Below are positions 1 to 56,093 of a DNA stretch of 64,000 nucleotides, in pieces. The notes under the pieces are model-generated. The model did no database searches, was not told where the DNA came from, and saw nothing but the letters and a program-made list of their open reading frames with translations. Positions within the stretch are counted from its first letter, which is position 1. The number at the start of each line of letters is the position of its first letter. Source of the stretch: Pseudomonadota bacterium (lineage in GTDB: Bacteria; Pseudomonadota; Gammaproteobacteria; Eutrophobiales; Eutrophobiaceae); contig JAYQJO010000001.1 in the NCBI GenBank assembly GCA_038142205.1, positions 678,527-742,526 on the forward strand. The letters run 5' to 3'. The position numbers were made by a program, and so were the translations under genes.

Positions 1-2109
1 GCCAAAGACGCAAATAAGGAAGAAAGCAACGACGGAACCACAGGTTTTACATATACCGTTAAGCTCGACAATGCTGCATCAGAGGCTTTCGATGTTAACT
101 GGAAAGTAGGTGATGACAGCAAGACCAACAAAGATGATTTCGCAGCGGACACTGGAAAGTTAAGTTTTGCCAAAGGCGATCAATCAAAAGATCTGGTGGT
201 TCAAGTCAAAGGTGATAAGGCATGGGAGGGTAATGAAGAGTTCACCGTTGCGATTGATGAAACCACACTACCAAAGGGAATTAAGCTGGGCGCCAATTCT
301 ACAGCAAAGGGAACGATCAAAAATGACGATTACCCAACTATTTCAATCGTTGGTCCAGGAGACAGCGTAAATGAAGGAAACAGCGATTCAGAATTAGTTA
401 TTTTTGCTGTTTATGTTCAAGATAATGGAAATGAAATTTCCTCTGATAAGGTGATATCAGCTGTCACGATCGATTGGAAGATATTGTTAGAAAGCGAGAA
501 TGCAACGGATAAAAACGATTTTACCGATGATACAAAGTTATCAGGAACTTATAAGGTTGATAAAGATACAGCTTCATACAATTATCTGGATTTCAAGGTA
601 AAAGGGGATGAGATCTGGGAGTCAGACGAAACAGTTACTATTGAAGTTACGCATTCAATTATCGAATCTGGACAAACCAAAGAGTTAGGGAAAACGCGTA
701 GTTCCGTAACAATAAAAAATGATGACGCGAAAGATTACTGCGCTGACGATCCTTGTAAAAATAACGGTCAATGTAGTAACGATTTAGAAAAGAAAACATT
801 TAGTTGTGCTTGTACCACAGAGTATAAAGGAACGACTTGTGATCAGTTAATAAACAACCCACCTGTCGTTAAAAAGAAGATAGAGGATCAGATAAAAACA
901 GTAGGAGACTGGGTATATTTGCAATTTAATTATACTGATTATTTCAGTGATGCGGATGGTGACGGTCTTGCTCTGGAGATAACAGGTTACCCTGAAAGCT
1001 TGTCTTTTACTTATCCTACTCCCGGCGGTGGCAGCATGATTAGTGGTACGCTGAAAGATAAGGATGTCCGAGAACACACAATCACCGTCACTGCAAAAGA
1101 TGGTAAAGGTGGCAAAGAATCGACAACCTTCAAGCTGACTGTTAAGGCTAAAGATAATTCAAGTATTATAAATGCAACATGTCCTGTAGTGACACCATTC
1201 AGATGTCCGGATAACACATGTAAAGCAACACACTCAGATTGTACTAGAACATCGTCAGCTACCGGCTGTCCTAAAATCACATGTCCTGATGGAAGTTGTG
1301 TTGAATATATAGCAAGTTGCCCTAAAGCTTCGACTAGTACTGCTTCAAGCAAAAAAACAACTGACTTCAAAGTCGTTAATAAAACAGTGTCTGTTTCACA
1401 AACAATCGATGAAAAAGAAGACAGCGACGGTAATAAGTCACTTACCTTTACCATTGAATTGAGTTGCCCAACAGACAAACCGGTTGAATGTTCAGCGAAT
1501 ACCTGTGCGCCAACACAAGCAGAGTGCACGACAACGGGAACGACATGTTCAGGTACGACACCCGTACAATGTGCTGATGGTAGCTGTGCAGTAAATCAGA
1601 CGAGTTGTCCTACAGTAGGGACGACTTGTGCAGCACCGACACCATTCAGATGTCCGGATAACACATGTAAAGCAACACAATCAGATTGTCCTGCTGAGAC
1701 ATCATCAGCATGCGCTACTGGTCAAGTGTTATGCAAAGATGGTTCATGCGCTAGTTCACCAAATCAGTGTCCTACAGTAGGGACGACTTGTGCAGCACCG
1801 ACATCGATTAGATGTCCGGATAACAGATGTAAAGCAACACAAGCAGAGTGCACGACAACGGGAACGACATGTTCAGGTACGACACCCGTACAATGTGCTG
1901 ATGGTAGTTGTGCAGTAAATCAGACGAGTTGTCCTACAGTAGGGACGACTTGTGCAGCACCGACACCACTCAGATGCCCTGATAACACATGTAAAGCAAC
2001 ACAATCAGAGTGTACTAGAACATCGTCAGCTACCGGCTGTCCTGCGACAGCGCCAATTACATGTAATGATGGAAGTTGTAGACCTACTTTAGGCGAGTGT
2101 CCGAGATAA
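1..2109 (+). CDS. Large secreted/surface protein, 3' part only (the gene starts upstream of the window). It has Calx-beta-like motifs, an EGF-like module, and tandem Cys-rich repeats.
   Basis: Frame 1 is open from nucleotide 1; the first ATG in the ORF track is at 196. The motif 'DDxWEGNEEFTVAID...TIKNDD' resembles Calx-beta. 'CADDPCKNNGQCSNDLEKKTFSCACTTEYKGTTCDQ' has EGF-like cysteine spacing. It is followed by repeated 'CPDNTCKATQSDC' and 'CADGSCAVNQTSCPTVGTTCAAPT' units. Repeats 1516-1641 and 1850-1975 are near-identical at the nucleotide level. Confidence 0.7.
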   Translation, partial: AKDANKEESNDGTTGFTYTVKLDNAASEAFDVNWKVGDDSKTNKDDFAADTGKLSFAKGDQSKDLVVQVKGDKAWEGNEEFTVAIDETTLPKGIKLGANSTAKGTIKNDDYPTISIVGPGDSVNEGNSDSELVIFAVYVQDNGNEISSDKVISAVTIDWKILLESENATDKNDFTDDTKLSGTYKVDKDTASYNYLDFKVKGDEIWESDETVTIEVTHSIIESGQTKELGKTRSSVTIKNDDAKDYCADDPCKNNGQCSNDLEKKTFSCACTTEYKGTTCDQLINNPPVVKKKIEDQIKTVGDWVYLQFNYTDYFSDADGDGLALEITGYPESLSFTYPTPGGGSMISGTLKDKDVREHTITVTAKDGKGGKESTTFKLTVKAKDNSSIINATCPVVTPFRCPDNTCKATHSDCTRTSSATGCPKITCPDGSCVEYIASCPKASTSTASSKKTTDFKVVNKTVSVSQTIDEKEDSDGNKSLTFTIELSCPTDKPVECSANTCAPTQAECTTTGTTCSGTTPVQCADGSCAVNQTSCPTVGTTCAAPTPFRCPDNTCKATQSDCPAETSSACATGQVLCKDGSCASSPNQCPTVGTTCAAPTSIRCPDNRCKATQAECTTTGTTCSGTTPVQCADGSCAVNQTSCPTVGTTCAAPTPLRCPDNTCKATQSECTRTSSATGCPATAPITCNDGSCRPTLGECPR

Positions 2110-2137
2110 AAGAATGATGAGAACACTTAACTACATA

Positions 2138-2290
2138 TTTTTCTTTTTTTCTCAGTGTTTGGTATTTTTATATTACCTGTCGTTAGTGCGGACGAAGACT
2201 CTGTGTCCGTTCCTTATTCTATTGATGGCATTAATCAGGATGATGTACTTGAAGATGGTAAGTTAAAAGGTAATGTCGAGTTTAAAAAAA
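2138..2290 (+). other. Homopolymer tracts (T5+T7 at 2138-2150; A7G4 at 2284-2294) that separate a signal-peptide-like N-terminus from the body of the surface-protein gene. They may be phase-variation switches or homopolymer miscalls.
   Basis: Three reading frames each carry one protein-like piece of a single N-terminal region. Switching frame at the T and A runs gives a continuous signal peptide plus mature protein. Confidence 0.45.
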
Positions 2291-4735
2291 GGGGAGAACT
2301 CTAAAACCATTACAATAAAAATAAAAAAGGATGCGAGTAAAAGTGGTGATGACGAACCTAAATTCTCACTTGGCGAAACGGATGATAAGAAAGTAAAACG
2401 CGGTAAAAATAATTCCGTCGCGATTAAACTGCCTGATACTCTGAAGCCTGCTGTCGCGAAAAACACCCCACCGACGGGTGCTGATAAGACAATTCAGGTA
2501 TTAGGAAACGACTCTTATACAAAAGCTTCGGAATATAGTGGCGCTTATTATGAATTTTCAGAAAAAGACTATGGTTTTAGTGATGCAGATGAGGGTGATT
2601 CTCTTTATACAGTTAAAATACTAAGTTTACCTGAGAGAGGGTGGTTATCAGGAGTTTTCTCTAATGGTACTTCAGGAAATCCGAAAGTCGGTGATGTGTT
2701 AGATAGTATTTATCTTGATGCATTGAGGTATTACCCCGTCGATGATGAGAGCGGTACCGTTAGTTTTCAATTTAGTGTCTCTGACAGTAAAGCCTTTTCT
2801 GTGCCCTATACCATGACGTTGAATTTTTCATGTCCTGAAGGTGAAGAATTAAAAGATGGTAAGTGTGTTGCAAAGAATACCCCACCGACGGGTGCTGATA
2901 AGACAATCCAGGTATTAGGAAACGACTCTTATACAAAAGCTTCGGAATATAGTGGCGCTTATTATGAATTTTCAGAAAAAGACTATGGTTTTAGTGATGC
3001 AGATGAGGGTGATTCTCTTTATACAGTTAAAATACTAAGTTTACCTGAGAGAGGGTGGTTATCAGGAGTTTTCTCTAATGGTACTTCAGGAAATCCGAAA
3101 GTCGGTGATGTGTTAGATAGTATTTATCTTGATGCATTGAGGTATTACCCCGTCGATGATGAGAGCGGTACCGTTAGTTTTCAATTTAGTGTCTCTGACA
3201 GTAAAGCCTTTTCTGTGCCCTATACCATGACGTTGGATTTTTCTGCTGTAGAGAAAACGAACACGCCTACTATTCAAGCCAACAGAAATATCATTGCGAA
3301 ACCGAATCCGGTTGAGTCAGGTGGTGTCGTCAGTCTTGATGCCAGAGGTACAGGTGTTTTTTATCAATATACAATTGAACCCGGTGCTCATACTGAAAGA
3401 TGGGAAGGATTTTGTGTTCCCGGCATTGCCGATAGAGCAACAATTGAGGATAACTCAAGCAAAACACCTGGGAATAACTTTAGCAAAAAAGGTCCTGCTC
3501 CATTTAATTTCATAGATGGAAAAATCGTTTTTGAGAATGATACGCTTAAAACCACGTGGACTGCGCCGATCAATACGACGAATGAAGTTATGACGTGTAA
3601 ATTAACGGTTATTGCTTCAAACAACGACGGCAATGCGTTTGCTCAATCTGTATTTGTCACTGTCTTACCTACTAAACAAGTCGCTGATACCAATTTGGTC
3701 GATGACAAACTGACACCCAAACCTAAGAAGGAATTTAAGTTAGTCGAGAACAGCAGGAAATTCTTGTTATATGATTCGCGTTTAATTAATGGCATCAGCT
3801 TAACTCAAGAAACAAGCTTTACTGATGCAGTTAATGCCGCTATTAATTGTCCTGCCAATAAACCGATACTTTGTTCGGATATGACATGTGCGGTATCAGA
3901 CGATGCGTGTACGACAACAACAACTACGACCACAACAGCCGCTGCGCCACCTGAAATCTGCGGTAACCTTGTTGATGATGATGGAGATACTCTTATCGAC
4001 TTTGCCGACCCTGATTGTACTACTGCGGAAAACGCTGGTGCAGGAAACTGTGGTGATTTTTTTGATAATGATAATGATGGCTTAACAGATTTTGCCGACG
4101 CTGGTTGTACTACTGCGGAAAACGCTGGTGCAGGAAACTGTGGTGATTTTTTTGATAATGATAATGATGGCTTAACAGATTTTCTCGACCCTGATTGTGT
4201 TGAAACAATATGTAATGACTTTACTGATAATGACAGTGATGGCGCTATAGATTTTGCTGACCCTGATTGTACTACTGCGGAAAACACTGGCGCAGGAAAT
4301 TGTGCTGACGGATTTGATAATGATAATGATGGCTTAACAGATGGGGCTGACCCAGATTGCGCACCAGCGTCATCGGCATTAACACTGGTTCCGCCTTTAC
4401 TTAACGATACTTCGTTTGCAAATACAATTGTGATTGTCGTCAATGGAGCAAATCTTAGTACGGTAATAGATGCTGACGCAGACTCGGTGGCGAACTCGCT
4501 ATTTCATGTACAGTTTACTGGTCCAGGAAGTGCTCTTGCGGTTCCTGCCACAGGTACCACTGTTGATAACACGAATATGTTGATGGACGGACCAAACATT
4601 GGACTCGGTTTTACAAGAGGCGGTATTACTTATGAAATCAATCTCGGTTTGACCATTACTTTTGACGATGACATTACCACCGATGCCTTGAGCGGTAGAA
4701 ATTGTGGGGCAGGAGGGACAGCACCATGTCCATGA
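2273..4735 (+). CDS. Large repeat-rich surface protein. It contains a 138-aa tandem duplication, a poly-Thr linker, and Cys-bracketed DxDxDG calcium-binding-like repeats. The true start may lie upstream at 2114, reached through two homopolymer frame changes.
   Basis: An 820-aa ORF. Near-identical direct repeats lie at 2459-2832 and 2873-3246. 'TTTTTTTTAAAPP' follows. Then come three 30-aa units, 'CTTAENAGAGNCGDFFDNDNDGLTDFADxxC'. The ATG at 2114 (frame 2) encodes 'MMRTLNYIFFFF'. Frame 1 continues as 'FSVFGIFILPVVSA|DEDSVSVPYSIDG...' after a T5/T7 run at 2138-2150. It rejoins the frame of 2273 at the A7 run at 2284-2290. Confidence 0.65.
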   Translation: MSSLKKGENSKTITIKIKKDASKSGDDEPKFSLGETDDKKVKRGKNNSVAIKLPDTLKPAVAKNTPPTGADKTIQVLGNDSYTKASEYSGAYYEFSEKDYGFSDADEGDSLYTVKILSLPERGWLSGVFSNGTSGNPKVGDVLDSIYLDALRYYPVDDESGTVSFQFSVSDSKAFSVPYTMTLNFSCPEGEELKDGKCVAKNTPPTGADKTIQVLGNDSYTKASEYSGAYYEFSEKDYGFSDADEGDSLYTVKILSLPERGWLSGVFSNGTSGNPKVGDVLDSIYLDALRYYPVDDESGTVSFQFSVSDSKAFSVPYTMTLDFSAVEKTNTPTIQANRNIIAKPNPVESGGVVSLDARGTGVFYQYTIEPGAHTERWEGFCVPGIADRATIEDNSSKTPGNNFSKKGPAPFNFIDGKIVFENDTLKTTWTAPINTTNEVMTCKLTVIASNNDGNAFAQSVFVTVLPTKQVADTNLVDDKLTPKPKKEFKLVENSRKFLLYDSRLINGISLTQETSFTDAVNAAINCPANKPILCSDMTCAVSDDACTTTTTTTTTAAAPPEICGNLVDDDGDTLIDFADPDCTTAENAGAGNCGDFFDNDNDGLTDFADAGCTTAENAGAGNCGDFFDNDNDGLTDFLDPDCVETICNDFTDNDSDGAIDFADPDCTTAENTGAGNCADGFDNDNDGLTDGADPDCAPASSALTLVPPLLNDTSFANTIVIVVNGANLSTVIDADADSVANSLFHVQFTGPGSALAVPATGTTVDNTNMLMDGPNIGLGFTRGGITYEINLGLTITFDDDITTDALSGRNCGAGGTAPCP
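2459..3246 (+). repeat. Tandem direct duplication inside the surface-protein gene. The copies are 2459-2832 and 2873-3246 with a 414-bp period.
   Basis: About 372 bp with only 3 mismatches, encoding a 122-aa module 'AKNTPPTGADKTIQVLGNDSYTK...SVPYTMTL'. Confidence 0.9.
4016..4350 (+). repeat. A 90-bp tandem repeat (two identical copies at 4016-4105 and 4106-4195, and a diverged third at ~4268-4350). It encodes the motif 'CTTAENAGAGNCGDFFDNDNDGLTDFxDxxC'.
   Basis: Read directly from the sequence. Confidence 0.85.
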
Positions 4736-5295
4736 TGAAAATAATTACATTCAAAGCATCAATAGCGGCTCTTCTGCTCATGTTTACTTTAGGCAGTATT
4801 CATACTGATGTTGAAGCGCGTGATTTTCGTTCTATCCGCTATGTCGAGTCACCTAAACTCAAAGACATGATAAACAAAGCCCAATTTAAAGATGGTGGTT
4901 TATCGCCAGAAGCAGAGGGGCTTAATTTAAAACCGATTCCGCAAGAAGCGGTACGGCAAGCCGTGCGTGATTTTTTTGCGGCATGGAACAATGGTCCTGG
5001 TTCGTTGGCTTCACATCTTGATCCGGAGTTTGTGAATGCCGCTCGCTTAATTGATTCAATTAATGATGTTGTACCCAGAGATGCCACCGTACGCGTGCTG
5101 GCGATCAGTTCGATAGTAACGCGACCCGACGAAATAGTTTGGTTATCAGAAGAAGATAAAACTAAGGGTTTTGATAGGAAAACCAAAGTTTCTGTCGTTG
5201 TTACGACGCAACTTGAATTTACTAATACCAATGGATTACAAAAAATTAGGGGTAATAGTGAATATAACTTTAACGTCACTGAGGAATACAGATAA
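4726..5295 (+). CDS. Hypothetical secreted protein (~190 aa).
   Basis: ATGs at 4726, 4732 and 4735 overlap the TGA of the upstream gene. The N-terminal signal peptide is 'MKIITFKASIAALLLMFTLGSIHT'. No recognisable family. Confidence 0.5.
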   Translation: MSMMKIITFKASIAALLLMFTLGSIHTDVEARDFRSIRYVESPKLKDMINKAQFKDGGLSPEAEGLNLKPIPQEAVRQAVRDFFAAWNNGPGSLASHLDPEFVNAARLIDSINDVVPRDATVRVLAISSIVTRPDEIVWLSEEDKTKGFDRKTKVSVVVTTQLEFTNTNGLQKIRGNSEYNFNVTEEYR

Positions 5296-5297
5296 AC

Positions 5298-7502
5298 ATG
5301 GGGCGTAGATTAATTTCATTTAATCGTTTATCTATTTCGAGTGTGATGCTCTTTACGAGCATTAACATGATGTCGTCTGTTATGGCAGAGGATGCTGATG
5401 GCCTGTTATTAGATTGGAGTATTAGTGGCTACAACACATACCGTGTGGATAATTATGAAGACAGCGGCAATATTTCTTCTAGTCCTTATCCTAATCGTGG
5501 CTTTCAACAATTTGACGATTTTAGTATCCAACTCAGTCGTGAAGTCTCTGAGTATGAAAATATCGAAGCACAGATTTCTGGAACGGTTGATGATTCGGAA
5601 TACAGAACGTCTGAAGAAGGTTTGATTTTTGAACGCGGTTACATCAATTGGGAGAAAGGCGATGGGGCGATACCGTTTCGTGCCGAACTCGGCGATTTTT
5701 TTGGTAATCAAAGCTTGCGTACATTGCAACGTTCTTTAAAAGGTGTGCAAATAGATTTACAACCTGATTTCTTGTTTCCAACTCCGCATTCGATACAGTT
5801 GTTTAGTGGTGTGACGAATAGTACCTATCGTAGCTTGAGTGATAATAAAAATTTCTTTACGGGCGGATCTTGGCTTGTACCAGAGAACAAACTCGGTGCG
5901 TTTATATTAACTGCGGTTAATAACACGACGCAATCCACCTTAACGACACCGAGATTAAACCAAACTGTGTACAGCATGGCTTGGGCTAAAGAAGCGTCGT
6001 ATTGGAATCAGAGTATAGAGCTTGAAGCAGAATATGGTTTTCTTTCCGGTGACGTATCCACTACCGAACTCAATAAGCATGACAATGGTTTTTTTACGCA
6101 ATTGAAAGGGAAGAGTGAAAATATTCCACTAACTTATCGGCTTCGACATGAACGCTATGGTGATGATTTCAGACCAAACGGTTCTTCTATCACCTCTAAT
6201 CAACGTGCCTCAGAAATTCATTTAGGCTGGCGTTTTACTACCGGGCTCAGTGCTAGAGCACGATTACAAACTTTCAGAACGAACTGGAGAACATCAAATT
6301 ATACGGATAGAGATGTTGTTGGTTTAACATTTAGTGGGCCTTTAATACCCTCTATTGGGTTAACGGGTAGTTTAGGATCGTTTATATCCGATACTGAAAC
6401 GGCGGATAAAACAACGAGTTCATTTTCGAACGCGACTAATGCCTCATTTTCGATGCCGATTGCTGATCATTGGGTAGCGCGTTTAGGTGGTGTGTTAACG
6501 CAAGTTGATAATCGTGTTGCGGGCACGGCAACAGTTAACCGCCAAATATCGTTAGGGCTGATTCATGATTTTAATTTCCATGGTTTTACCGGTTCTATTT
6601 CACCGAGTTTGAATCTCAGAGACAGTATCAGTGCGGGTAGTACAATCCAATCCGACATTTCACCTTCAGTGTCATTGAATGTACGAAAAGGTTCACACAG
6701 TTTAGCGTTTTCTCATAATGTCCAGATATTGGATACAAAGAGTTTGACGGGAACAGATACAGATACATTTCAATCGGCATTGAATTATTCCTACACGAAA
6801 AACGCGCATCGTATACAAATTGAAGCGAATCATTTTGACCGCAATCCGACACCCGGCAGTGGCACCGATGCGTATCGTATCGGCATAGGCTGGACCTATA
6901 ATTTTGATAGGCCCGCTCGCGTGATACCAAGGCCCGATCAAAAGTCAGCAGCTGAAACACAAGCGCCTGTTGAGGCGGCTCCCATGGCCATTGATGCTCA
7001 GCCGGATATAATAGAATTGATTCCGGGTATGGATATGAAAGTTGTTAAAGCCAGATTGGAACAGTCAGGCATTATCGAACCTCTCGTCAGAGGAGAATTG
7101 GAAATCTATGAAACGCCATTTATTGAGAGTATTGATCATCGTCAACGTTTAGGTTTGATTTCAGAAAATGGCTTTTTAGAAAAATCGGTACTTGTTATCG
7201 ACTTTGATGATCTGGGTGATATAGATAGTGCTTCTCAGATATATGATGAAGTACGTAAAGTCTTATTTGATCGCTATGGTCCGCCAACGACAAATATTGA
7301 AGAAGGCGTTTTTTCAGATAACATAAGAAGCGAATTACGCTCTGGTACTTTTCAACGAATTCTCGAATGGCAAACGACATCCAGTGTATTACGTTTTGGT
7401 ATTCCTGACAGAACCGATGGTCAAGTTAGAATGGAAATCATCCATGCTACACGCTTTTCTTCTGGCGAGGATAATTTCTGGAGTACCGAAGCGCTTAGAT
7501 AG
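5298..7502 (+). CDS. Outer-membrane beta-barrel protein with a ~200-aa C-terminal soluble extension.
   Basis: A signal peptide ('MLFTSINMMSSVMA') is followed by ~500 aa of alternating amphipathic strands, ending in a barrel-terminal 'YRIGIGWTYNF'. A Pro/Ala linker and a globular C-terminal domain follow. Confidence 0.55.
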   Translation: MGRRLISFNRLSISSVMLFTSINMMSSVMAEDADGLLLDWSISGYNTYRVDNYEDSGNISSSPYPNRGFQQFDDFSIQLSREVSEYENIEAQISGTVDDSEYRTSEEGLIFERGYINWEKGDGAIPFRAELGDFFGNQSLRTLQRSLKGVQIDLQPDFLFPTPHSIQLFSGVTNSTYRSLSDNKNFFTGGSWLVPENKLGAFILTAVNNTTQSTLTTPRLNQTVYSMAWAKEASYWNQSIELEAEYGFLSGDVSTTELNKHDNGFFTQLKGKSENIPLTYRLRHERYGDDFRPNGSSITSNQRASEIHLGWRFTTGLSARARLQTFRTNWRTSNYTDRDVVGLTFSGPLIPSIGLTGSLGSFISDTETADKTTSSFSNATNASFSMPIADHWVARLGGVLTQVDNRVAGTATVNRQISLGLIHDFNFHGFTGSISPSLNLRDSISAGSTIQSDISPSVSLNVRKGSHSLAFSHNVQILDTKSLTGTDTDTFQSALNYSYTKNAHRIQIEANHFDRNPTPGSGTDAYRIGIGWTYNFDRPARVIPRPDQKSAAETQAPVEAAPMAIDAQPDIIELIPGMDMKVVKARLEQSGIIEPLVRGELEIYETPFIESIDHRQRLGLISENGFLEKSVLVIDFDDLGDIDSASQIYDEVRKVLFDRYGPPTTNIEEGVFSDNIRSELRSGTFQRILEWQTTSSVLRFGIPDRTDGQVRMEIIHATRFSSGEDNFWSTEALR

Positions 7503-7606
7503 TTATGTTTTTTTTACAGCTGAATAATATTAAAGTGACAGAATTATTATAAGTATTACAATAACCAGCACGATGGAACATTGTTCACTTTAGCTGTCTA
7601 AAAAAT

Positions 7607-7879
7607 ATGGTACAAAAGAACATACTAAACCAAATAATGATTTTATTGATGGTGATTTTGCTATCAATTTCATTTTCAGCTATTTCTGAAGAAGACGAAA
7701 AGCGTAGTGTTAAGCCTATAGACGGTGAATTGGTCTTACCTGACGATTACAATAAAGCAGAAGATAAAAAATGTGTTACGGTCTGTGATCGTTGGGGGGA
7801 AGACTGTATACTCAATCCGAGTACGGGTAGTCGGAAATGTCGGCGAGTATGCAAATCATTTGCTGAACAATGTTTCTAA
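7607..7879 (+). CDS. Small secreted cysteine-rich protein (90 aa, 6 Cys in the mature part).
   Basis: An N-terminal hydrophobic signal peptide; the ORF lies in an intergenic gap upstream of tRNA-Leu. Confidence 0.4.
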   Translation: MVQKNILNQIMILLMVILLSISFSAISEEDEKRSVKPIDGELVLPDDYNKAEDKKCVTVCDRWGEDCILNPSTGSRKCRRVCKSFAEQCF

Positions 7880-8030
7880 AAACGTTATTATCTAGCCCAC
7901 CTGTTATATTCAGATTTACAATACAAACTAGCGACTAATAGAATTAACTTTCTTGTATGGATGTTTGTTGTATGGGATCAGTTTGTGCTTATTAAAAACA
8001 GAGAAACAGGTGTTTCTCGAGCCAAAAAAA

Positions 8031-8115
<85 letters not shown>

Positions 8116-8204
8116 ATTAAGATATCTTTGCTATATTATTATGAAATAATAATGTTTATAGTTAAGGTATTGAATTTATTTAATATTTGAGGTTTATGAG
8201 TAGG

Positions 8205-9521
8205 ATGCAAGTATCAGTAGAAAATACCAGTTCGCTTGGGCGTAAGATTAAAGTTGAACTACCACAAGATGAGATCAGCACGGAAGTGAATAATCGTCTT
8301 CAAAATATGACCAAGACGACAAAGATTCAGGGCTTTCGGCCAGGAAAAGTACCTTTAAAAGTGATTCAAGGCCGTTATGGTGTTCAGGTGCGCAAAGAAG
8401 TCGTCGGAGCAATGGTAGAAAAGAGTCTTTATGAAGCCATCAGCCAAGAAAAGCTTAATATCGCCGGTCTACCAAAAATTGATGAATTGAGTGATGAACT
8501 TGGCAAAGATATAGCCTATACCGCAGTTTTTGAAATTTACCCTGAAGTGACTCTCAAGCCTATGGCCGATGTTAAGGTCGAGAAAATGACTTGTGATGTG
8601 TCTGATGATGATGTTGCGAAAATGATAGAAATGCTCCGTAAGCAACGTCGTGAGTTAAAGCCTGTCGAAAGAGCGGCGAAAGATGGCGATAGCATCAATA
8701 TTGATTTTGAGGGGTTTATTGATGGTGAAGCTTTTGAGGGCGGTAAAGCCGAAGGTTATGACCTTGAGTTAGGAGCTAATAGTTTTATTGAAGGCTTTGA
8801 GGAAGGATTGATAGGAAAGTCAGCTGGAGATGACGTTACTTTGGATTTGAAATTTCCCGATGACTATGGAAATGAAACTTTAAAAGGAAAGCAGACCGAA
8901 TTTAAGGTCAAAGTTAATCTGGTTAACGAGTCTGTCCTGCCTGAAATTAATGAAGCTTTTATGGAGCAGTTTGGCGTTAAAGATGGTAAGGAAGAAACAT
9001 TGACTGCTGAAATCCGTCGTAATATGGAACGTGAAGTTGAGTTGGCGACGCGTCGACAATTGAAGGAAACGGTATTTGAGTCTTTACGTGAAGAAAACGA
9101 GGTTGAATTACCGCAATCGTTGATTGAGAGTGAACAACATCGTATCAAGCATGAAATGGCAGAACGACTAAAACAGCAAGGTATGGATGGCGGCGCGATT
9201 GGCGATGCAGATGTGTCTTTATTTGCTGATGAGGCTAAAAAGCGTGTTTCATTACAATTAATTGTGGGTGAAATCATTAAACAAAATGAATTAAGTCCTG
9301 ATCAGGAAAAAGTACGCCAGATGATCGAACAAGCAGCAGCTGGCTATGACGATCCTAATACTGTAATAAACTGGTATTACTCGGATAAAAAGAACCTGAA
9401 GGAAGTCGAATCGTTGGCTCTCGAAGAGAGTGTGATTGACTGGGTATTAGAGCATGCGACTGTTTCTGACAAGGCATACACGTTTGACGAAATTATGAAT
9501 AAAGGGCAGACTGCTGCCTAA
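8205..9521 (+). CDS. tig: Trigger factor.
   Basis: The N-terminus 'MQVSVENTSSLGRKIKVELP' matches E. coli Tig 'MQVSVETTQGLGRRVTI'. It sits upstream of clpP-clpX-lon. Confidence 0.93.
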   Translation: MQVSVENTSSLGRKIKVELPQDEISTEVNNRLQNMTKTTKIQGFRPGKVPLKVIQGRYGVQVRKEVVGAMVEKSLYEAISQEKLNIAGLPKIDELSDELGKDIAYTAVFEIYPEVTLKPMADVKVEKMTCDVSDDDVAKMIEMLRKQRRELKPVERAAKDGDSINIDFEGFIDGEAFEGGKAEGYDLELGANSFIEGFEEGLIGKSAGDDVTLDLKFPDDYGNETLKGKQTEFKVKVNLVNESVLPEINEAFMEQFGVKDGKEETLTAEIRRNMEREVELATRRQLKETVFESLREENEVELPQSLIESEQHRIKHEMAERLKQQGMDGGAIGDADVSLFADEAKKRVSLQLIVGEIIKQNELSPDQEKVRQMIEQAAAGYDDPNTVINWYYSDKKNLKEVESLALEESVIDWVLEHATVSDKAYTFDEIMNKGQTAA

Positions 9522-9553
9522 AGTTATTACAGATTATACCGATATAAATTGCT

Positions 9554-10207
9554 ATGAATAATATTGAAACTCAAGCACTTAATTTAGTGCCAATGGTCGT
9601 TGAACAGACGTCCAGAGGTGAGCGCTCCTACGATATCTATTCGCGACTTCTTAAAGAACGTATTATTTTCTTGGTTGGCGCGGTTGATGATAATGTTGCT
9701 AATGTCATTGTTGCACAACTACTTTTCTTGGAATCAGAAAACCCTGACAAAGATATCCATTTTTATATTAACTCCCCTGGTGGTGTGGTAACAGCTGGTA
9801 TGGCGATTTATGACACCATGCAGTTTATTAAGCCCCAAGTGAGTACGATGTGTCTTGGTCAAGCAGCTAGTATGGGATCATTACTATTAGCTGGAGGTGA
9901 AAAAGGTAAGCGTTATTGCCTACCTCATTCTCGTGTCATGATTCACCAGCCTTTAGGCGGTTTTCAGGGGCAAGCAACGGATATTGACATACACGCCAAA
10001 GAAATTTTGTTTATTCGTGAACGACTTAACCAAGTCCTAGCTCATCATACAGGACAATCGATTGAAACTATCGAAAAGGATACTGACCGTGATAACTTTA
10101 TGAGCGCGGAAGCAGCAAAAGAATACGGACTGATTGATAGTGTTCTGAATGAAAGATCTGGTTTGCCAGAAGAAGATGTCAATGAGGCGGATAAAGAATC
10201 AGAGTAA
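9554..10207 (+). CDS. clpP: ATP-dependent Clp protease proteolytic subunit.
   Basis: ClpP active-site context '[18 protein letters not shown]' and '[10 protein letters not shown]'; conserved synteny. Confidence 0.95.
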
Positions 10208-10234
10208 TTTATTTAATACTGTCAGGAGTAAATA

Positions 10235-11515
10235 ATGACTGATAATAAAGAGGGTAAAAACGGCGACGGTGATCGCCTACTATATTGTTCCTTCTGTGGT
10301 AAGAGTCAGCATGAAGTTAGAAAGTTGATTGCCGGCCCTTCTGTATTTATCTGTGATGAATGTGTCGAATTATGTAATGACATTATTCGCGAAGAAATTC
10401 AGGAGAAATCTGTTAGCGGTGTTGGTTCTTCATTACCTACACCACACGAAATTAACAAGATTTTGAATGAGTATGTTATCGGTCAGGAAAGGGCAAAGAA
10501 AATTCTTTCTGTTGCTGTATACAATCACTATAAACGTCTTGAGCAAGGTGTTAAAAAGTCAGACGTTGAATTATCGAAAAGCAATGTTCTGCTTATTGGA
10601 CCTACTGGTAGTGGTAAAACCTTGTTGGCCGAAACAATGGCGCGATTACTGAATGTGCCCTTTACCATTGCTGATGCAACGACATTAACCGAAGCAGGGT
10701 ATGTCGGCGAAGATGTTGAAAACATCATCCAGAAACTATTACAGAAATGTGATTACGACGTTGATAAAGCGCAGACTGGTATTGTCTATATTGATGAAAT
10801 TGACAAGATTTCACGCAAATCAGATAACCCGTCAATTACTCGCGATGTTTCCGGTGAAGGTGTTCAACAGGCATTATTAAAGCTGATTGAAGGAACCGTA
10901 GCTTCTGTTCCGCCTCAAGGTGGACGTAAGCACCCGCAACAGGAGTTTCTGCAGGTTAATACCGCTAATATCCTGTTTATCTGTGGTGGTGCTTTTGCGG
11001 GACTTGATAAAATTATCCGTGAACGCTCAGAAAAGGGCGGTATTGGCTTTTCTGCAGAAGTGAAAGGCAAGGAGGATAAGAAGAGCGTCAGCGAAGTTAT
11101 TCATACGGTAGAACCGGAAGATCTAATCAAATACGGTTTAATTCCAGAATTCGTAGGTCGTTTACCTGTCGCGGCAACATTATCTGAACTTGACGAAGAA
11201 CAGCTCTTGCAAATCTTACAAGAACCTAAAAATGCAATTACTAAGCAATATACGCGATTATTTGATATGGAAGGCTGTGAACTTGAGTTTCGTGAAGACT
11301 CCTTACGTGCTGTGGCCAGAAAATCGATGGAGCGTAAAACAGGTGCGCGTGGATTACGTTCAATAATGGAAAATGTGCTATTAGATACAATGTATGATTT
11401 ACCTTCTATGGATAATGTCGCCAAAGTCGTTATTGATGAAGGTGTAATTAATGGTGAATCAGAACCTTTGATGATTTATGAAGGCTCTGATATGTCAAAA
11501 GCTGCATCTGAGTAA
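10235..11515 (+). CDS. clpX: ATP-dependent Clp protease ATP-binding subunit ClpX.
   Basis: A zinc-binding '[30 protein letters not shown]' segment and the Walker A motif 'GPTGSGKT'; conserved synteny. Confidence 0.95.
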
Positions 11516-11573
11516 GGTTTTCTAATTTCCTGCCGAATATTTGCATGATTAGTGCATAACTCTAATCATGCAT

Positions 11574-11601
11574 CTTGAAAAAGAGAAATAAGCCACCATA
11601 T
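11574..11601 (+). promoter_or_regulatory. Putative sigma-32 heat-shock promoter for lon. A perfect 10-bp inverted repeat, GCATGATTAG...CTAATCATGC, lies just upstream at 11543-11571.
   Basis: CTTGAAA at 11574-11580 and CCACCATAT at 11593-11601 match the sigma-32 consensus CTTGAAA-N13-CCCCATNT. lon is a sigma-32 gene in E. coli. Confidence 0.5.
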
Positions 11602-11650
11602 CGTTTTAAGGTATACTTATTTAACTCGTAAAATTTACAAAAGGTTTTTT

Positions 11651-14059
11651 ATGACAAAAGAAACTGAGACACTTCCTGTTCTTCCCCTTCGTGATGTTGT
11701 TGTTTATCCACACATGGTTATTCCCTTGTTTGTCGGACGTGAAAAGTCGATTAAAGCATTGGATAAAGCGATGGAGGGCAGTAAACAAATTTTACTTGTT
11801 GCGCAGAAAAGCGCTGCTGAGGATGAGCCCGGTCAAGATGAAACCTATAATATTGGAACACTTGCCAATATTTTACAGCTATTAAAATTACCAGATGGCA
11901 CGATTAAGGTTTTAGTCGAAGGTACAGCCAGAGCAGGCATAAAAGATTATCGCGATGAAGACGGTATGTTTGTCGCTGATGTTGAATTACTTGAAGGTGT
12001 TGTCGCCGATGAACAGGAAATGGACGTGCATGCGCGTTCAGCAATGAATCAGTTCGAGCAGTATGTAAAATTAAACAAGAAAGTTCCGCCAGAAATTATT
12101 TCCTCGCTTACCAGTATTGATGATGCCAGTCGCTTGGCTGATACGATCGCAGCGCATATGTCGATAAAAATAGAGGAAAAACAACATGTTCTGGAGATTA
12201 TCGATATAAAAGAACGCCTTGAGCATCTCATCCATTTGATGGAATCAGAGATTGATTTGTTGCAGGTCGAAAAACGTATTCGTGGTCGTGTGAAGTCTCA
12301 AATGGAAAAGAGCCAGCGCGAGTATTATTTGAATGAGCAGATGAAAGCGATTCAGAAAGAGTTGGGTGAAATGGATGATGTGCCTAATGAAATTGATGAA
12401 TTAACGGATAAAATTGAAAAAGCAGGTATGCATAAAGAGGCTAGGGAAAAGGCTGATTCAGAATTAAATAAACTGAAAATGATGTCGCCGATGTCTGCGG
12501 AGGCGACGGTAGTTCGTAATTACATAGACTGGCTTGTTGGCGTGCCATGGAAAAAGCGTAGTAAGGTTTCACAAGATATAGCCAAAGCAGAAAACATACT
12601 TGAAGAAGATCATTTTGGATTGGAAAAAGTAAAAGAACGTATTCTCGAATATCTTGCTGTACAACAACGCGTCAAGAAAATGAAAGGTCCTATCTTATGC
12701 CTGGTCGGTCCTCCTGGTGTCGGTAAAACATCGCTTGGCCGTTCTATTGCCAGAGCAACAAACCGTAAATTTATTCGCATGTCTTTGGGTGGCGTTCGTG
12801 ACGAAGCTGAAATTCGAGGTCATAGACGAACTTATATCGGTTCTATGCCCGGAAAAATTGTCCAAGGCATGTCAAAAATCGGTAAGAAAAACCCGCTTTT
12901 CTTGCTTGATGAAATAGACAAGATGGCAATGGATTCACGAGGTGATCCAGCATCGGCTTTACTGGAAGTTTTAGATCCGGAACAAAATAACACGTTTAAC
13001 GACCACTATCTTGAAGTTGATTATGATTTATCCGAAGTCATGTTTGTGACGACGGCGAATAGTTTAAATATTCCTGGACCTTTATTAGATCGTATGGAAA
13101 TTATTCGTATCTCCGGTTATACCGAAGATGAAAAAATTAATATTGCTAAGCGTTATTTGATACCGAAGCAATTTACAAGTAATGGTATAAAAGAAGGTGA
13201 AGTAGTTATTAGAGAAGGTGTTATTCGCGATATTATTCGTTATTACACGCGAGAAGCAGGTGTTCGTAGTCTTGACAGGGAAATTGCGAATATATGCAGA
13301 AAAATAGTGAAGCAAATTTTGCTTAAACCTACTGATAAAACAGTCACAGTCACTGAGAAAAAACTTGAATCTTTATTAGGCGTTAAAAGATTCCGTTATG
13401 GTCGAGCTGAAGAAGAAGATCGTATCGGTCAGGTTACCGGACTTGCCTGGACGGAAGTTGGTGGTGAATTATTGACGATTGAAGCGGCTATGGTTGATGG
13501 TAAAGGAAAAATAACACGTACTGGTAAATTAGGTGAAGTTATGCAGGAGTCAATCGAAGCAGCGATGACTGTTGTCAGAAGCCGTAGTAATATTCTCGGT
13601 ATTGATCATGATTTCTATAAGGAAAATGATTTTCATATTCATGTGCCGGAAGGAGCGACACCAAAAGATGGGCCAAGTGCCGGTGTGGGTATGTGTACAG
13701 CGCTTGTTTCTGCACTTTGTAAAATTCCTGTTAAATCCAGTGTTGCGATGACAGGAGAAATTACCTTACGTGGTGAAGTGTTGCCAATTGGCGGTTTAAA
13801 AGAAAAATTACTTGCTGCGCTAAGAGGAGGAATTGAAACAGTATTAATACCTTACGAGAATGATCGAGAATTATCCGAGATTCCAAAGAACATAAAACAG
13901 AATCTTGATATTCGACCGGTTAAATGGATTGATGAAGTACTTGAGGTGGCATTGGAAAAAATGCCGGAGCCGAGTGCCAAAAGTGGTTCTGAATCTGATA
14001 TAGTCAAAACCGAAGAAGTAATAGGAAAAGAGAAAAACGATTTAATCCGACCACACTAA
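11651..14059 (+). CDS. lon: Lon protease.
   Basis: 802 aa. The Lon N-terminal domain is '[23 protein letters not shown]'. Walker A 'GPPGVGKTS' and the catalytic 'DGPSAG' are present. Confidence 0.95.
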
Positions 14060-14087
14060 ATTATTTGCATCTGTTTGAAACCATTGC

Positions 14088-14116
14088 TTGACGCCTATTT
14101 CAGCTCTTGGTATAAA
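14088..14116 (+). promoter_or_regulatory. Sigma-70 promoter for hupB.
   Basis: TTGACG (14088-14093), a 17-bp spacer, then TATAAA (14111-14116), about 110 bp upstream of the hupB ATG. Confidence 0.55.
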
Positions 14117-14226
14117 ACTAGCGCAAAAAAAAAGTATCCAGGTCAAAAGAACAATACTATCTCACCAGTCAGACACATATCTGTAATAGCTGTAGCTGGG
14201 AATTATATACAAGGGGAATAATTATT

Positions 14227-14499
14227 ATGAATAAAGCTGAACTTATTGATGCTGTAGCCGATTCTGCAGATTTGTCTAAAGCATCTGCAGGACGAGCATT
14301 GGATGCAGCAATAGAAGCAATAACAAAAGCACTTAAAAAAGGTGATACCGTTACATTAGTAGGGTTTGGAACATTTTCAGTTCGTAAGCGTGCAGCGCGT
14401 ACGGGTCGTAACCCAAGAACGGGTGAAGAAATAAAAATCAAAGCGTCAAAAGTTCCTGGCTTTAAAGCTGGCAAAGCTCTCAAGGATGCCATAAACTAG
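14227..14499 (+). CDS. hupB: DNA-binding protein HU-beta.
   Basis: 90 aa. '[11 protein letters not shown]...[26 protein letters not shown]...' closely matches E. coli HupB. Confidence 0.93.
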
Positions 14500-14508
14500 C
14501 GCGCCCTT

Positions 14509-14584
14509 GGGTGCTTAGCTCAGTTGGTAGAGCGTCGCCTTTACACGGCGTAGGTCGGGGGTTCGAATCCCTCAGCACCCACCA
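14509..14584 (+). tRNA. tRNA-Val (anticodon TAC).
   Basis: GGGTGCT...AGCACCC-A-CCA. Anticodon stem CGCC/GGCG with loop TTTACAC. Similar to E. coli tRNA-Val(UAC). Confidence 0.9.
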
Positions 14585-14617
14585 TGTTAAAAATTTAATA
14601 AGAGTAGAACACACTTA

Positions 14618-14694
14618 GGAGTGGTAGTTCAGTTGGTTAGAATACCGGCCTGTCACGCCGGGGGTCGCGGGTTCGAGTCCCGTCCACTCCGCCA
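14618..14694 (+). tRNA. tRNA-Asp (anticodon GTC).
   Basis: Near-identical to E. coli tRNA-Asp: GGAGTGGTAGTTCAGTTGGTTAGAATACC...CTGTCACG...GGGTTCGAGTCCCGTCCACTCCGCCA. Confidence 0.92.
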
Positions 14695-16746: not shown

Positions 16747-18008
16747 TTAATATATTTTTTCCCCTTCAGTTTTGGCAACAATAACTGCGCAACAACTGTC
16801 ACTAAATACGTTTACAGCTGTTCTTGTCATATCCAGAATCCTGTCCGTTACCAGAAGCAAGCCAATTCCTTCCAACGGTAAACCAATAACACCGAGAATA
16901 ACAGTAATTGCGACAAGACTGGCTGCAGGAATACCGGCAACACCGATTGATGTTAAAAGAGCGACAAGAACGATTGTAAACTGTGTTGTAAAAGTCAGAT
17001 CCAGACCATAAGCTTGAGCAATAAATATTGCAGCAACACACTCATATAAAGCCGTACCATCCATGTTGATGGTTGCCCCTAACGGTAATACGAAAGAAGT
17101 TGTCTGGTTTGATACGCCTGCCTTTTTTCTATACATTCCATAGTAATGGGTAATGTGCCTGAGGAAGACGCCGTTGAAAAAGCAGTAAGCATTGCCGGAG
17201 CCATCGTCGTGTAATGACTTAACGGGTTTATCTTTACAACAGTTTTTAATAATAAAGCCAGCGTTATAAATTTATGAAAAAGTAGTGCCAGTAATACAGT
17301 TATAAAAAATAAAAGCAAGGGCTGGAAAGCACTAAAACCAGTAGCCGTAATTGTTTTAGCCACAAGCCCAAATACACCGATGGGCGCAAACTTCATAACA
17401 AACATGGTTATTGCCATCATTGTGTTAAACACGCCTTGCCAGAAGTTTTCTAAAGCCTGTTTTTGTTGTCCAGCAAGTTGGCTCATAAAATAGCCAAATA
17501 ACATGCCGAAGAAGATGAGTCCAAGCATTTGACCTTCGGCTGCTGCTTTTACGATATTGGTCGGCACCATACGAAGAAAAACATCGGTTATATCACTGGC
17601 ACTGCGATCTTCAACACGTTCTAATTGAGAAGCGACTTCTGTATCTGTACTCAGATTGAGTATTTCTCCTGCCGGTTTCCCATCAACGATGCCAGGCGTT
17701 AGAACATTGACAAAAATTAGGCCGATAAGAATAGCTAATAGACTTGATAATAAATAAAAACCTATTGTTTTACTTCCCAGTCGTCCAAGGTTTTCACTAG
17801 CACCGATACTGGATATGCCGCAAATAATAGAGGAAAGCACAAGCGGCACGATGATCATCTTCAGCGCATTTAGAAAAAGGGTGCCGATAAAGCTAAAGAT
17901 GCTATAGAAAGTGACACTGCCTATAGCAGTGTCCTTATCTATCATTGCCCCAATCAGCATTGCCAAAATAATGGCAATAAGAATTTGCCAATGTAATTTC
18001 AGCTTCAT
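16747..18008 (-). pseudogene. Dicarboxylate/amino-acid:cation symporter (DAACS, GltP/SstT-like), split by a -1 frame change in a T6/A6 run at 17123-17128.
   Basis: The N-terminal ORF 17079-18008 and C-terminal ORF 16747-17136 overlap. The expected DAACS motif '...[13 protein letters not shown]|[27 protein letters not shown]' is restored if the A6 run (minus strand) is A7. Confidence 0.65.
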
Positions 18009-21148: not shown

Positions 21149-22120
21149 TGGCTTATATCGTAAGGCGTATTGCTTATGCCATTCCCATACGCATAGGTGT
21201 CAATATCATTACGTTTCTATTGTTTTTTGTTGTTAATACACCTGATGATATGGCTCGTATGCAACATGGCGCGAAACATGTTAGTGAAGCTGCCATAGAA
21301 AAGTGGAAAGAAGAAAGGGGCTATGACAAACCGATACTCTGGAACAGCGATGCCGAAGCATCAGAAAAAATAACGGATACGATCTTTTTGAAAACTCAGT
21401 AAAACTGTTTTTGTTTGATTTTGGTCGTTCAGATAGTGGCCGTGATATTAGTTATGATATCAGTCAGCGTATGTGGCCCAGTCTTTCTATTACAGTACCC
21501 AGTTTACTATTAGGTCTATTGGCCTATATCACCTTTGGTTTAATACCGCCTTCTTCCGCGGCAGTTATATTGATGTATCCGGTGTTATTCTTTGTGTTGC
21601 CATGATGTCGATATCCGGTTTGTTTTATATTATTGGCGGCCAGTTTCTAATAGGTAAAGTTCTGCATCTTGTGCCTATTTCCGGCTATGACACAGGGCTT
21701 AATGCAATTAAATTTACAGTCTTACCCGTATTAATCGGTTTGGTTGGCGGTATTGGTGCGAGTACCCGTTGGTATAGAACTATTTTTCTTGAAGAGATGG
21801 GGAAGGATTATGTGCGTACAGCAAAAGCGAAAGGCTTATCAGAAACGATAGTTTTATATAAACATGTATTAGCGAATGGACTTATTCCAATTTTGACGGG
21901 AGTTGTTGTTATTCTGCCTACTTTATTTATGGGGAGTTTAATTGTTGAGTCCTTTTTCGCTATTCCCGGTTTAGGCAGCTATACCATCGATGCAATTAGT
22001 GCGCAGGATTTCGCCATTGTACGCTCGATGGTCTTCCTAGGTTCTGTGCTTTATATTATTGGTTTGATATTAACTGACATCTCTTACACTCTCGTTGATC
22101 CAAGAGTGAGGCTAAACTAA
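21145..22120 (+). pseudogene. YejB-like ABC permease, interrupted by two -1 frame changes (near 21365-21395 and near 21548-21560).
   Basis: Three consecutive ORFs in frames 1, 3 and 2 (21145-21402, 21411-21605, 21473-22120) together align colinearly with E. coli YejB. The matched segments are 'MMAYIVRRIAYAIP...', '...LFLFDFGRSD...SITVPSLLLG...', and '...RGSYIDVSGV...EAA-loop...DISYTLVDPRV'. Confidence 0.6.
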
Positions 22121-55733: not shown

Positions 55734-56093
55734 TATGATTGATCTCCGCTGAACTATTTATTTCAAATTATTTATTCTTTTCTATACCTACCTGAATGTA
55801 GACGACTTCACCTAGGCGAAGTTCAAGGTTCAATAGTTTAAAGATTCTGTACGACTATGGCTATGCCATGTCTAAATTTAATGAAATATTTTGAAGTTTG
55901 TTTGATTTAAGGTAAATAATGAAAACCTTGCATTTATCAGGAAAAGTTTTTTATATTGAATAAATGACTTAAACTATGATGAATAAACCTGCTATGCATG
56001 AAAAATGTTCAGGTTATAACAATAATTATAAGTAAATGGTCGTACTCAACCTATTCACTGGTATTGCAATTTCGTCTCTGGAGGACGTTTTTG

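Follow-up and report, generated by a model that had tools for sequence, protein, structure and literature searches.

Close to the left end of a 64,000-nt stretch of contig JAYQJO010000001.1 from a Pseudomonadota bacterium (hereafter, the window; GC content 38.8%), positions 2114–4735 resemble a gene for a surface protein that is spread over three reading frames, with a frame change at each of two homopolymer tracts near the 5′ end and a near-identical repeat further downstream. The question raised by this locus is whether the gene is switched on and off by slippage, is truly broken or is intact in nature and misread in this assembly, and how its repeated modules arose. The region is a single gene, and we consider it probable that this is one modular adhesin-like gene, intact in nature, the frame breaks of which are consensus errors and the modules of which were homogenised by segmental replacement or gene conversion. 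What the data support directly is one gene with a leader recognised by a signal-peptide heuristic, a modular architecture, a Ca2+-loop motif with conserved ligands, variation of cassettes among strains and conserved accessory genes downstream. All the features of the initial annotation were recovered, several of them with corrected numbers, and none is attributable to chance. Overall, the locus is an ordinary variable surface-protein gene of already known kinds. Proteins and loci used for comparison are designated P and L, respectively; L003, L014 and L018 are from the ENA assembly ERZ23498511.

Reading frames and the two homopolymer tracts

2114..4735, plus strand: focal adhesin-like gene, encoding a predicted secreted modular protein of 873 amino acids (aa), read here in three frames owing to two 1-bp homopolymer differences
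2114..2190, plus strand: coding region of a Sec-type signal peptide, MMRTLNYIFFFFFSVFGIFILPVVSA followed by DED in the intact form, as read from the sequence
2138..2150, plus strand: T5CT7 tract; the T7 run at 2144–2150 is T8 in the ENA assembly (gap at window position 2143 against L003 position 10031); frame 2 changes to frame 1
2284..2294, plus strand: A7G4 tract; A6G4 in the ENA assembly and in L002, with one extra A in the window; frame 1 changes to frame 2

The ATG at 2114 is in frame 2, the signal-peptide-like reading follows in frame 1 (2155–2304) and the body of the protein is in frame 2 (2273–4735), so that the frame changes which the initial annotation had placed at T5CT7 and A7G4 were borne out by inspection of the open reading frames (ORFs). 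Addition of one T and removal of one A yields an uninterrupted 873-aa ORF. A protein of this length, P0005, is encoded on scaffold_11 of the independent metagenome assembly ERZ23498511 and matches the reconstruction except for an I/L and an F/L difference, whereas the NCBI product of the window genome, P0001, comprises 820 aa starting from the ATG at 2273 and falls into the same 90% cluster as P0005. In the orthologues P0002 (987 aa, locus L001) and P0003 (759 aa, locus L002), a Sec-type leader and the body are likewise encoded in one frame, in agreement with the earlier description of a surface-protein gene with an upstream signal peptide. The leader consists of a basic n-region (Arg3), an 18-residue hydrophobic core and VSA before D, with Kyte–Doolittle means over 15 residues reaching 2.6 (a heuristic measure); that of P0002 is analogous and ends with IASA before EEE. 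By this n-h-c heuristic, the gene product, a putative surface (adhesin-like) protein rich in Asp, Thr and Cys, would be exported through Sec.

The comparison with the ENA assembly (L003, L014 and L018) covers 55,309 bp of the window and revealed 33 substitutions (7 transitions and 26 transversions) and six one-base indels, five of them in homopolymers and five of them deletions in the window. Over window positions 1–14669, aligned with ENA scaffold_11, there are five substitutions and exactly two indels (2143 and 2284). The remaining four indels lie at 17122 (T6 versus T7), at 21384 (T5 versus T6), at 21546, where a lone T is concerned, and at 33484 (C5 versus C6). By contrast, two strains with 99.5% identity, L019 and L020, differ from this lineage by 56 transitions, 11 transversions and no indels (Fisher P = 1.7e-9 versus the private spectrum). 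Wherever other independent assemblies, from more than eight runs of SRR, ERR and DRR projects, cover the sites private to the window, they carry the ENA allele each time and the window allele never, and the divergent strains L019 and L020 have the ENA allele at the window-private sites too. Furthermore, the private substitutions include 23 non-synonymous and 9 synonymous changes, compared to 17 and 27, respectively, for the natural ones (P = 0.005), and private sites are clustered, with 12 of the 38 inter-site gaps being shorter than 165 bp (P = 5e-4). The private patches occupy positions 1908–2284, which hold both focal tracts, 17122–17312, 21191–21546, 28613–28823 and 56431–56519.

Because the tract differences fall into one of several such error-like patches, T7 in place of T8 and A7 in place of A6 are most likely consensus errors of this assembly, as suggested by the spectrum of private differences, their clustering and the apparent lack of selective filtering. 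A bias toward one-base deletions in homopolymers is typical of long-read assembly consensus sequences. Miscalls were one of the explanations put forward in the initial annotation and are the one favoured here, given the intact ENA copy and the 37 private, error-like differences that the 55-kb comparison revealed besides these two. With ~0.7 private error-like differences per kb in the window assembly, gene-breaking one-base indels among them, any claim of a frameshift, a pseudogene or phase variation made from the window calls for confirmation in independent assemblies; the main value of the present finding lies in quality control.

Several points weigh against this interpretation of the locus. 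Two of the six private indels lie within 141 bp of each other at the 5′ end of this gene, with a net length change of zero, an outcome that a hypermutable pair of tracts could also give, and the choice between error and real private mutation is drawn from the pattern of differences rather than from a direct view of the reads. As for the protein, the duplicated module remains below the curated cut-offs of the families to which we assign it (Cadherin_3, 19.3 versus 25.5 bits; Cadherin_5, 15.0 versus 26.5 bits; NF012211, 17.9 versus 90 bits), the AlphaFold2 model of the C-terminal 335 aa, built from a three-sequence alignment, has a mean predicted local distance difference test (pLDDT) score of 34, and Ca2+ binding, surface location and the role of the accessory genes are predictions only.

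The competing explanation that survives best is that the indels, like the other private differences, arose by real mutation in the sequenced clone, which could be a mutator, have passed through a bottleneck or have been propagated in the laboratory. The gene would then be a true pseudogene, with one tract inactivated first and the other drifting afterwards. The window alleles are indeed derived and private, the excess of non-synonymous changes and the broken genes would suit unfiltered mutation equally well as error, and, by a hand tally, seven of the first 19 substitutions are G:C>T:A, as would be expected from oxidative damage or a mutY-type mutator. However, tight patches of 90–380 bp, including one with four changes in 9 nt, are unusual for independent events, all but one of the six indels remove a single base, mostly from homopolymers, and several transport and redox genes would have been broken together within 20 kb. 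We regard this scenario as unlikely.

Still less probable, and in our view very unlikely, is that the T and A tracts are slipped-strand on/off switches, another possibility raised in the initial annotation, with the window representing a double-OFF state and the ENA assembly an ON state. Homopolymer contingency genes are known in Neisseria, Haemophilus, Campylobacter and Helicobacter, and the focal gene shares with such phase-variable surface genes the frame-deciding mononucleotide runs in the 5′ coding region: both tracts lie within the first 180 bp of a surface-protein gene, their indels are the only ones in 14.7 kb of alignment, and the ON and OFF forms differ by tract length alone. By contrast with those genes, the tracts are short, 6–8 nt being at the short end of the range for phase variation, and A/T runs of this size are common in the region (112 homopolymer runs of at least 6 nt in the 55 kb compared). 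Length polymorphism does not rise above the background of indels: the T7/A7 lengths are confined to one error-rich assembly with equal private indels in housekeeping-type genes, whereas the ENA assembly, the only other one found over the tracts, has T8/A6, and overlapping assemblies never share private alleles. Nor is there a conserved device, because the T run is missing from the leaders of the orthologues in L001 and L002; an A6 run is present in both and is read in frame, the sequence of L002 at this point being GAGTTTAAAAAAGGGGAG, i.e. A6G4 with the same flanks as in the window. Finally, switching on would require two tract changes at once. A stop codon at 2264–2266, between the tracts, means that the two shifts do not compensate for each other; a compensating –1/+1 pair giving a functional protein is ruled out by this frame-2 stop.

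Among the assemblies found, the ENA scaffold is the only second sample that covers both tracts. A scan of genome contigs for more loci by orthologue alignment produced 210 pattern matches, none of which was confirmed. In the JGI metagenomes, the exact 27-mer located between the two tracts had no match and a protein-alignment scan gave no confirmed hit. The N-terminal 163 aa, used as a homologue query for partial 5′ ends from other samples, scored nothing, and neither the 50-aa frame-2 ORF nor the 820-aa NCBI product had an exact counterpart on record among other contigs.

Several other genes in the window are affected by private differences. The gene for an SDF sodium:dicarboxylate symporter (16747–18008, minus strand) encodes an intact protein of 420 aa in the ENA assembly; in the window, the indel at 17122 divides it into ORFs of 129 and 309 aa, and three private transversions lie in the adjacent 190 bp. 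An ABC permease gene (BPD_transp_1; 21052–22120, plus strand), which encodes 325 aa in the ENA assembly, is cut to 116 and 215 aa by private one-base deletions at 21384 and 21546, 162 bp apart and one of them outside a homopolymer, with two private substitutions immediately upstream of these indels. A Pyr_redox enzyme (32087–33550, minus strand) has its full 484 aa in the ENA assembly but only 441 aa in the window, through C5 versus C6 at 33484, and an acetyltransferase of 161 aa, likewise intact in the ENA assembly, ends after 144 aa in the window, where a private G>T at 28823 creates TAA. The glycerate kinase gene (55998–57266) accumulates six private substitutions in 89 bp (56431–56519), four of them in 9 nt (56431–56439); L019 and L020 have the ENA alleles in this patch, and the four residues altered in the window cost the enzyme 14 bits against PF02595. 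The protein encoded in the window at 45170–46429 had no exact match on record, probably owing to a private substitution at 46359.

Two observations concern the assemblies themselves. Within the minus-strand ORF at 60442–63078, positions 61886–62355 form a Lys/Glu/Ala-rich, coiled-coil-like coding repeat that is represented by a gap of 100 N in the ENA scaffold; the window assembly spans this ~470-bp repeat, which short reads cannot resolve, and thus fits a long-read origin. Loci L005–L017, aligned with window positions 4151–27785, place the same organism in at least eight unrelated runs (SRR, ERR and DRR), and identity across those runs is 100% outside the window-private sites, which is unusually clonal for an environmental bacterium. 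Runs with this organism at 100% identity include SRR19664650, DRR796587, SRR15322231/41/42, SRR26337552/54, ERR7460771 and ERR9769275.

The duplicated module and cassette turnover

2465..2829, plus strand: module copy 1 (M1), a putative divergent tandem-95/bacterial cadherin-like domain
2830..2878, plus strand: inter-module linker, 49 nt and unique, CPEGEELKDGKCVAKN; disulfide loop CPEGEELKDGKC plus VAKN
2879..3243, plus strand: module copy 2 (M2), positional orthologue of the single copy in L001

The middle of the gene had been described as two 372-bp segments with three differences, produced by a very recent tandem duplication of 414 bp. A repeat is indeed present, and Tandem Repeats Finder reports it with a period of 414, 1.9 copies and 99% matches over 2465–3243, but its size and its number of differences require correction. 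In a base-by-base comparison at an offset of 414, the near-identical core (2465–2829 versus 2879–3243) measures 365 nt and contains two differences, at 2494 (T/C, synonymous) and at 2822 (A/G, Asn/Asp); the intervals 2459–2832 and 2873–3246, originally assigned to the copies, are 374 nt each and differ at seven positions. On the 3′ side of each core the sequences are unrelated, and on the 5′ side ~13 nt are alike, corresponding to the VAKN codons with four third-position differences. A clean 414-bp tandem duplication is excluded in every register, given the unrelated core flanks and the unique linker. Accordingly, the proposed tandem unit is replaced by two 365-bp copies around a unique linker, whereas the proposed recency of the event holds: M1 and M2 are 99.5% alike, and each is ~89% identical to the single M of L001.

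As suggested in the initial annotation, copy number was compared among related strains. L001 has one copy and L002 none. At this site, L001 carries a module X, which has the same fold pattern as M and is 27% identical to it over 64 aligned columns, followed by the CPEGEELKDGKC linker and then by one M; window positions 2831–3406 are colinear with L001 9757–10344, and M1 aligns to that same L001 segment. L002 contains neither X nor M, and a 444-bp segment, Calx-beta-like in a protein alignment, occupies the interval between the breakpoints at 2440 and 3263. The most economical history consistent with these alignments would start from an ancestral X-linker-M arrangement; in the window lineage, gene conversion or segmental replacement would then have put M in the place of X. 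Replacement or conversion is preferred over tandem duplication because the linker already precedes the single copy in L001. Alternatively, the duplication could be older, with the core homogenised later. Under either history, the variable region between the conserved domain junctions evolves in concert and turns over its cassettes, and the locus provides a tidy case of surface-protein diversification by the swapping and homogenising of domain cassettes between fixed end domains, which will not surprise specialists.

It is extremely unlikely that the pair of modules is itself an assembly artefact, for instance a repeat that was collapsed or joined wrongly. The gene is hard to assemble, as contigs built from the short reads of other runs break inside it (L005 and L006 begin at window position 4151), but the ENA scaffold reproduces both copies together with the two positions at which they differ, L003 matches the window throughout 2452–3243, the linker between the copies is unique, and so are the flanks outside them. 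Being present in both assemblies, the duplication is an artefact of neither.

Domain architecture and the acidic loops

2191..2440, plus strand: N-terminal Calx-beta-like domain (SVSVPYSIDG...VAIKLPDT), present in all orthologues; homology to other strains ends at 2440
3244..3727, plus strand: Ig/PKD-like region with one Cys pair (381/442, 820-aa numbering), kept in L002 and looser in L001
3728..3910, plus strand: KEFKLVENSRKFLLYDSRL segment and four-Cys knot (CPANKPILCSDMTCAVSDDAC), conserved in P0002 and P0003
3911..3952, plus strand: T9A3P2 linker with mixed Thr codons
3959..4360, plus strand: five acidic C-x18-C loops (NF033662), predicted to bind Ca2+; one unit more than in P0002 and P0003
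4361..4732, plus strand: C-terminal domain of ~125 aa, ending with SGRNCGAGGTAPCP; 96% identical in L001 and 47% in L002

From the N-terminus onwards, the domain order would be a signal peptide, a Calx-beta-like N-domain, two tandem-95/cadherin-like modules around a disulfide-loop linker, an Ig-like region, the SRKFLLYDSRL/four-Cys segment, a poly-Thr linker, five acidic loops and a conserved C-terminal domain. The direct Pfam match of the N-domain to Calx-beta is weak (E = 0.16); the homologous N-terminus of a protein encoded in a Tara Oceans relative, in the position of the focal gene beside the same accessory genes (hereafter, Tara cargo protein), lies within a Calx-beta match (best stretch, residues 32–90; whole protein, E = 5e-18, three stretches). 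Over 40 aa, the SRKFLLYDSRL/four-Cys segment shares 67% of its residues with Tara cargo proteins (E = 1.6e-10 and 2.2e-10). The Ig/PKD-like label reflects the sequence pattern of the region, for which there was no significant Pfam or NCBIfam match. The linker described earlier as T8A3P2 is a poly-Thr linker, with nine rather than eight Thr residues; the possibility that it is a slippage-prone microsatellite was rejected in view of its mixed Thr codons.

For the 124-aa module, an exhaustive phmmer search recovered 1317 cluster representatives at E ≤ 1e-3, 445 of them at E ≤ 1e-10, many being proteins of several thousand residues with up to 37 copies each. All eight matches that were scanned (a convenience pick of shorter ones) contain Big_9, Cadherin_4, Cadherin_5 or Cadherin_3 domains above the Pfam cut-offs and overlapping the phmmer match, and seven of the eight also pass the cut-off of NF012211 (tandem-95). 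For instance, the module matches residues 122–217 of P0174, in which Cadherin_3 extends over residues 117–216. By transitive homology only, the module is thus classed as a divergent tandem-95/bacterial cadherin-like domain. Compared to the giant adhesins built from such domains (NF012211, Big_9, Cadherin_3/4/5), the focal protein has two copies only and a Sec leader. Type I secretion is typical of many of those giant proteins.

The five acidic loops are located at 3959–4018, 4049–4108, 4139–4198, 4211–4270 and 4301–4360, with four units in each of P0002 and P0003. Each loop contains six or seven Asp/Glu residues, the loop region has ten Cys in total, an exact DxDxDG is found in four of the five loops, and three of the five are preceded by a TTAEN(A/T)GAGN spacer; Tandem Repeats Finder reports a 90-bp period with 2.2 copies and 94% matches over 4001–4198. 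The three Cys-bracketed units of 30 aa recognised in the initial annotation are therefore of the type proposed but number five, the three being those with the spacer. The focal protein is a member of NF033662 by the curated threshold (89.3 bits versus a 41-bit cut-off, E = 9e-26, five stretches), and its loop motif is thus already catalogued. This family, the acidic double-disulfide repeat, is defined by the repeat alone and does not imply the rest of the focal architecture; a literature search for "acidic double-disulfide repeat" found no paper.

The only sequence match of the loops in the PDB, at a marginal E = 0.002, is the C-rich domain of teneurin-4 (7PLP), the loop motif C-G-D-x-x-D-N-D-x-D-G-L-x-D-x-x-D-P-D-C aligning to residues 838–857. 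Three Ca2+ are bound by the teneurin C-rich domain, at sites I and II in the manner of thrombospondin (TSP) type 3 repeats, through the ligands D840, D843, N844, D845, D847, D851, D854, D856 and E835, and it contains a C838–C857 disulfide (PMC9058538). When mapped by hand, all the listed ligands are identical in the loop except E835, which is unaligned. The likeness to TSP3/DxDxDG calcium loops noted at the outset is thus upheld by the NF033662 score and by the match to 7PLP. Unlike the teneurin domain, which has six Cys in three disulfides (1–3, 2–5 and 4–6), the focal loops keep the C838–C857 pair only; equivalents of C852, C858, C863 and C869 are missing, and C852 aligns to Phe. Furthermore, teneurin has a single domain packed on its TTR domain, whereas the loop is iterated five times in the focal protein, apparently as a stalk. 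Each of the five loops most likely chelates Ca2+ and stiffens this stalk. That a bacterial protein repeats a teneurin/TSP3-type calcium loop to form part of a stalk will not surprise specialists.

A possible course of events would begin with export of the focal protein through Sec and formation of its disulfides in the periplasm. Ca2+ would then load the five loops, producing a rigid acidic stalk beyond the poly-Thr linker, and the cadherin-like and Calx-beta modules would be presented for adhesion. The conserved C-terminal domain, possibly an anchor or recognition domain, might be handed to the downstream barrel.

A translation start at ATG 2273, giving 820 aa with no leader and export by type I secretion, which the initial annotation had named as an alternative, is close to negligible as an explanation: the NCBI annotation gives exactly this product (P0001), but the residues encoded 5′ of 2273 are kept in frame with Sec leaders, and the leaders with the body, in three other strains, the A6 form puts ATG 2273 out of frame, and neither the GGxGxD nonapeptides nor the missing N-terminal Sec leader of type I-secreted RTX adhesins fits the focal protein, which has no GGxGxD/RTX motif and carries 20 cysteines placed as if disulfide-paired, an arrangement that would need an oxidising compartment and fits an exported, oxidised protein.

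Neighbouring genes and the accessory pair

The focal gene is the last in a run of large Calx-beta/EGF/He_PIG/cadherin-like genes. Positions 1–2109 (plus strand) encode the last 702 residues of a secreted protein of 1404 aa with Calx-beta, EGF and He_PIG/Big_9 domains, the gene for which extends off the left end of the window. The upstream gene contains three 162-bp tandem units in 1461–2016 with Cys-rich CPDNTCKATQSDC-type motifs, and the leader and first domain of its product (TVTVPYTI...) are similar to those of the focal gene. Downstream, the focal gene is followed by two accessory genes:

4732..5295, plus strand: accessory gene 1, for a signal-peptide protein of 187 aa; ATG at 4732, overlapping the focal TGA at 4733–4735
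5298..7502, plus strand: accessory gene 2, encoding 734 aa, with its ATG 3 nt past the previous stop; predicted 26-strand outer-membrane beta-barrel

Neither protein of the pair has a significant match to a Pfam or NCBIfam family. The 187-aa protein contains an AVRDFFAAWN motif that suggests an NTF2-like fold, and its homologue in Chromatiales matches DUF1348 weakly (E = 0.029). For the 734-aa protein, 24 homologues were found, and the AlphaFold2 model based on the 24-sequence alignment (pLDDT 80.5) predicts 26 strands over residues 41–538 and a C-terminal alpha/beta domain. When the barrel was compared to the PDB, the top TM-score was to MtrB (6R2Q_B, 0.42/0.47), whereas the top Foldseek E-values were to the usher barrels FimD and PapC. 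MtrB, the 26-strand sheath of MtrCAB (6R2Q chain B), shares its strand number with the predicted barrel; by contrast, identity is ~9%, there are no cytochrome genes nearby, and the 734-aa protein adds the C-terminal alpha/beta domain. A barrel of this predicted size could hold a polypeptide in its lumen.

Accessory gene 1 adjoins the barrel gene in L001, L002, L003, L023 and L021/L022. The trio formed with the focal gene is conserved in L001, L002 and L003, in the Tara Oceans relative (65% identity, with the tig-clpP-clpX-lon neighbourhood also retained) and in a Chromatiales metagenome-assembled genome (MAG; 35% identity). The ClpX encoded in the window shares a 90% cluster with MAG proteins that carry the label Thiotrichaceae bacterium. 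In two Tara samples (L023 versus L024), the accessory genes are identical (178 and 743 aa), whereas the cargo gene encodes 1499 aa in one and 856 aa in the other, the two sharing their C-terminal parts. The Tara cargo shares the leader and Calx-beta N-domain as well as the SRKFLL-x-DSRL segment with the focal protein and has no acidic loops; its C-terminus ends with SGFNCGTSQANCP, and the BLAST match to the focal C-terminus is not significant.

The accessory genes, for a small protein of periplasmic type and a large predicted outer-membrane barrel, probably help to display or anchor the focal protein. A bolder proposal, which we consider doubtful although somewhat less so than real mutation of the tracts, is that the focal gene is the variable cargo of a three-gene outer-membrane display module of marine Gammaproteobacteria, in which the barrel threads or anchors the adhesin as MtrB sheaths MtrA. 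The gene order holds as far as the Tara relative and the Chromatiales MAG, and the cargo varies even beside identical accessories. Such a module may consist of an adhesin with shuffled cassettes between two fixed ends, namely the Calx-beta N-domain and a C-terminal domain that finishes with SG-x-NCG-x5/6-CP, a signal-peptide protein of ~180 aa, possibly NTF2-like, and a protein of ~730 aa that forms a 26-strand barrel with a C-terminal alpha/beta domain. The pair of the small protein and the 26-strand barrel is the only part of the locus that might repay more work.

Beyond the accessory pair, positions 7607–7879 (plus strand) encode a small Cys-rich signal-peptide protein of 90 aa that belongs to no known family and is 100% identical in at least seven contigs of different projects.

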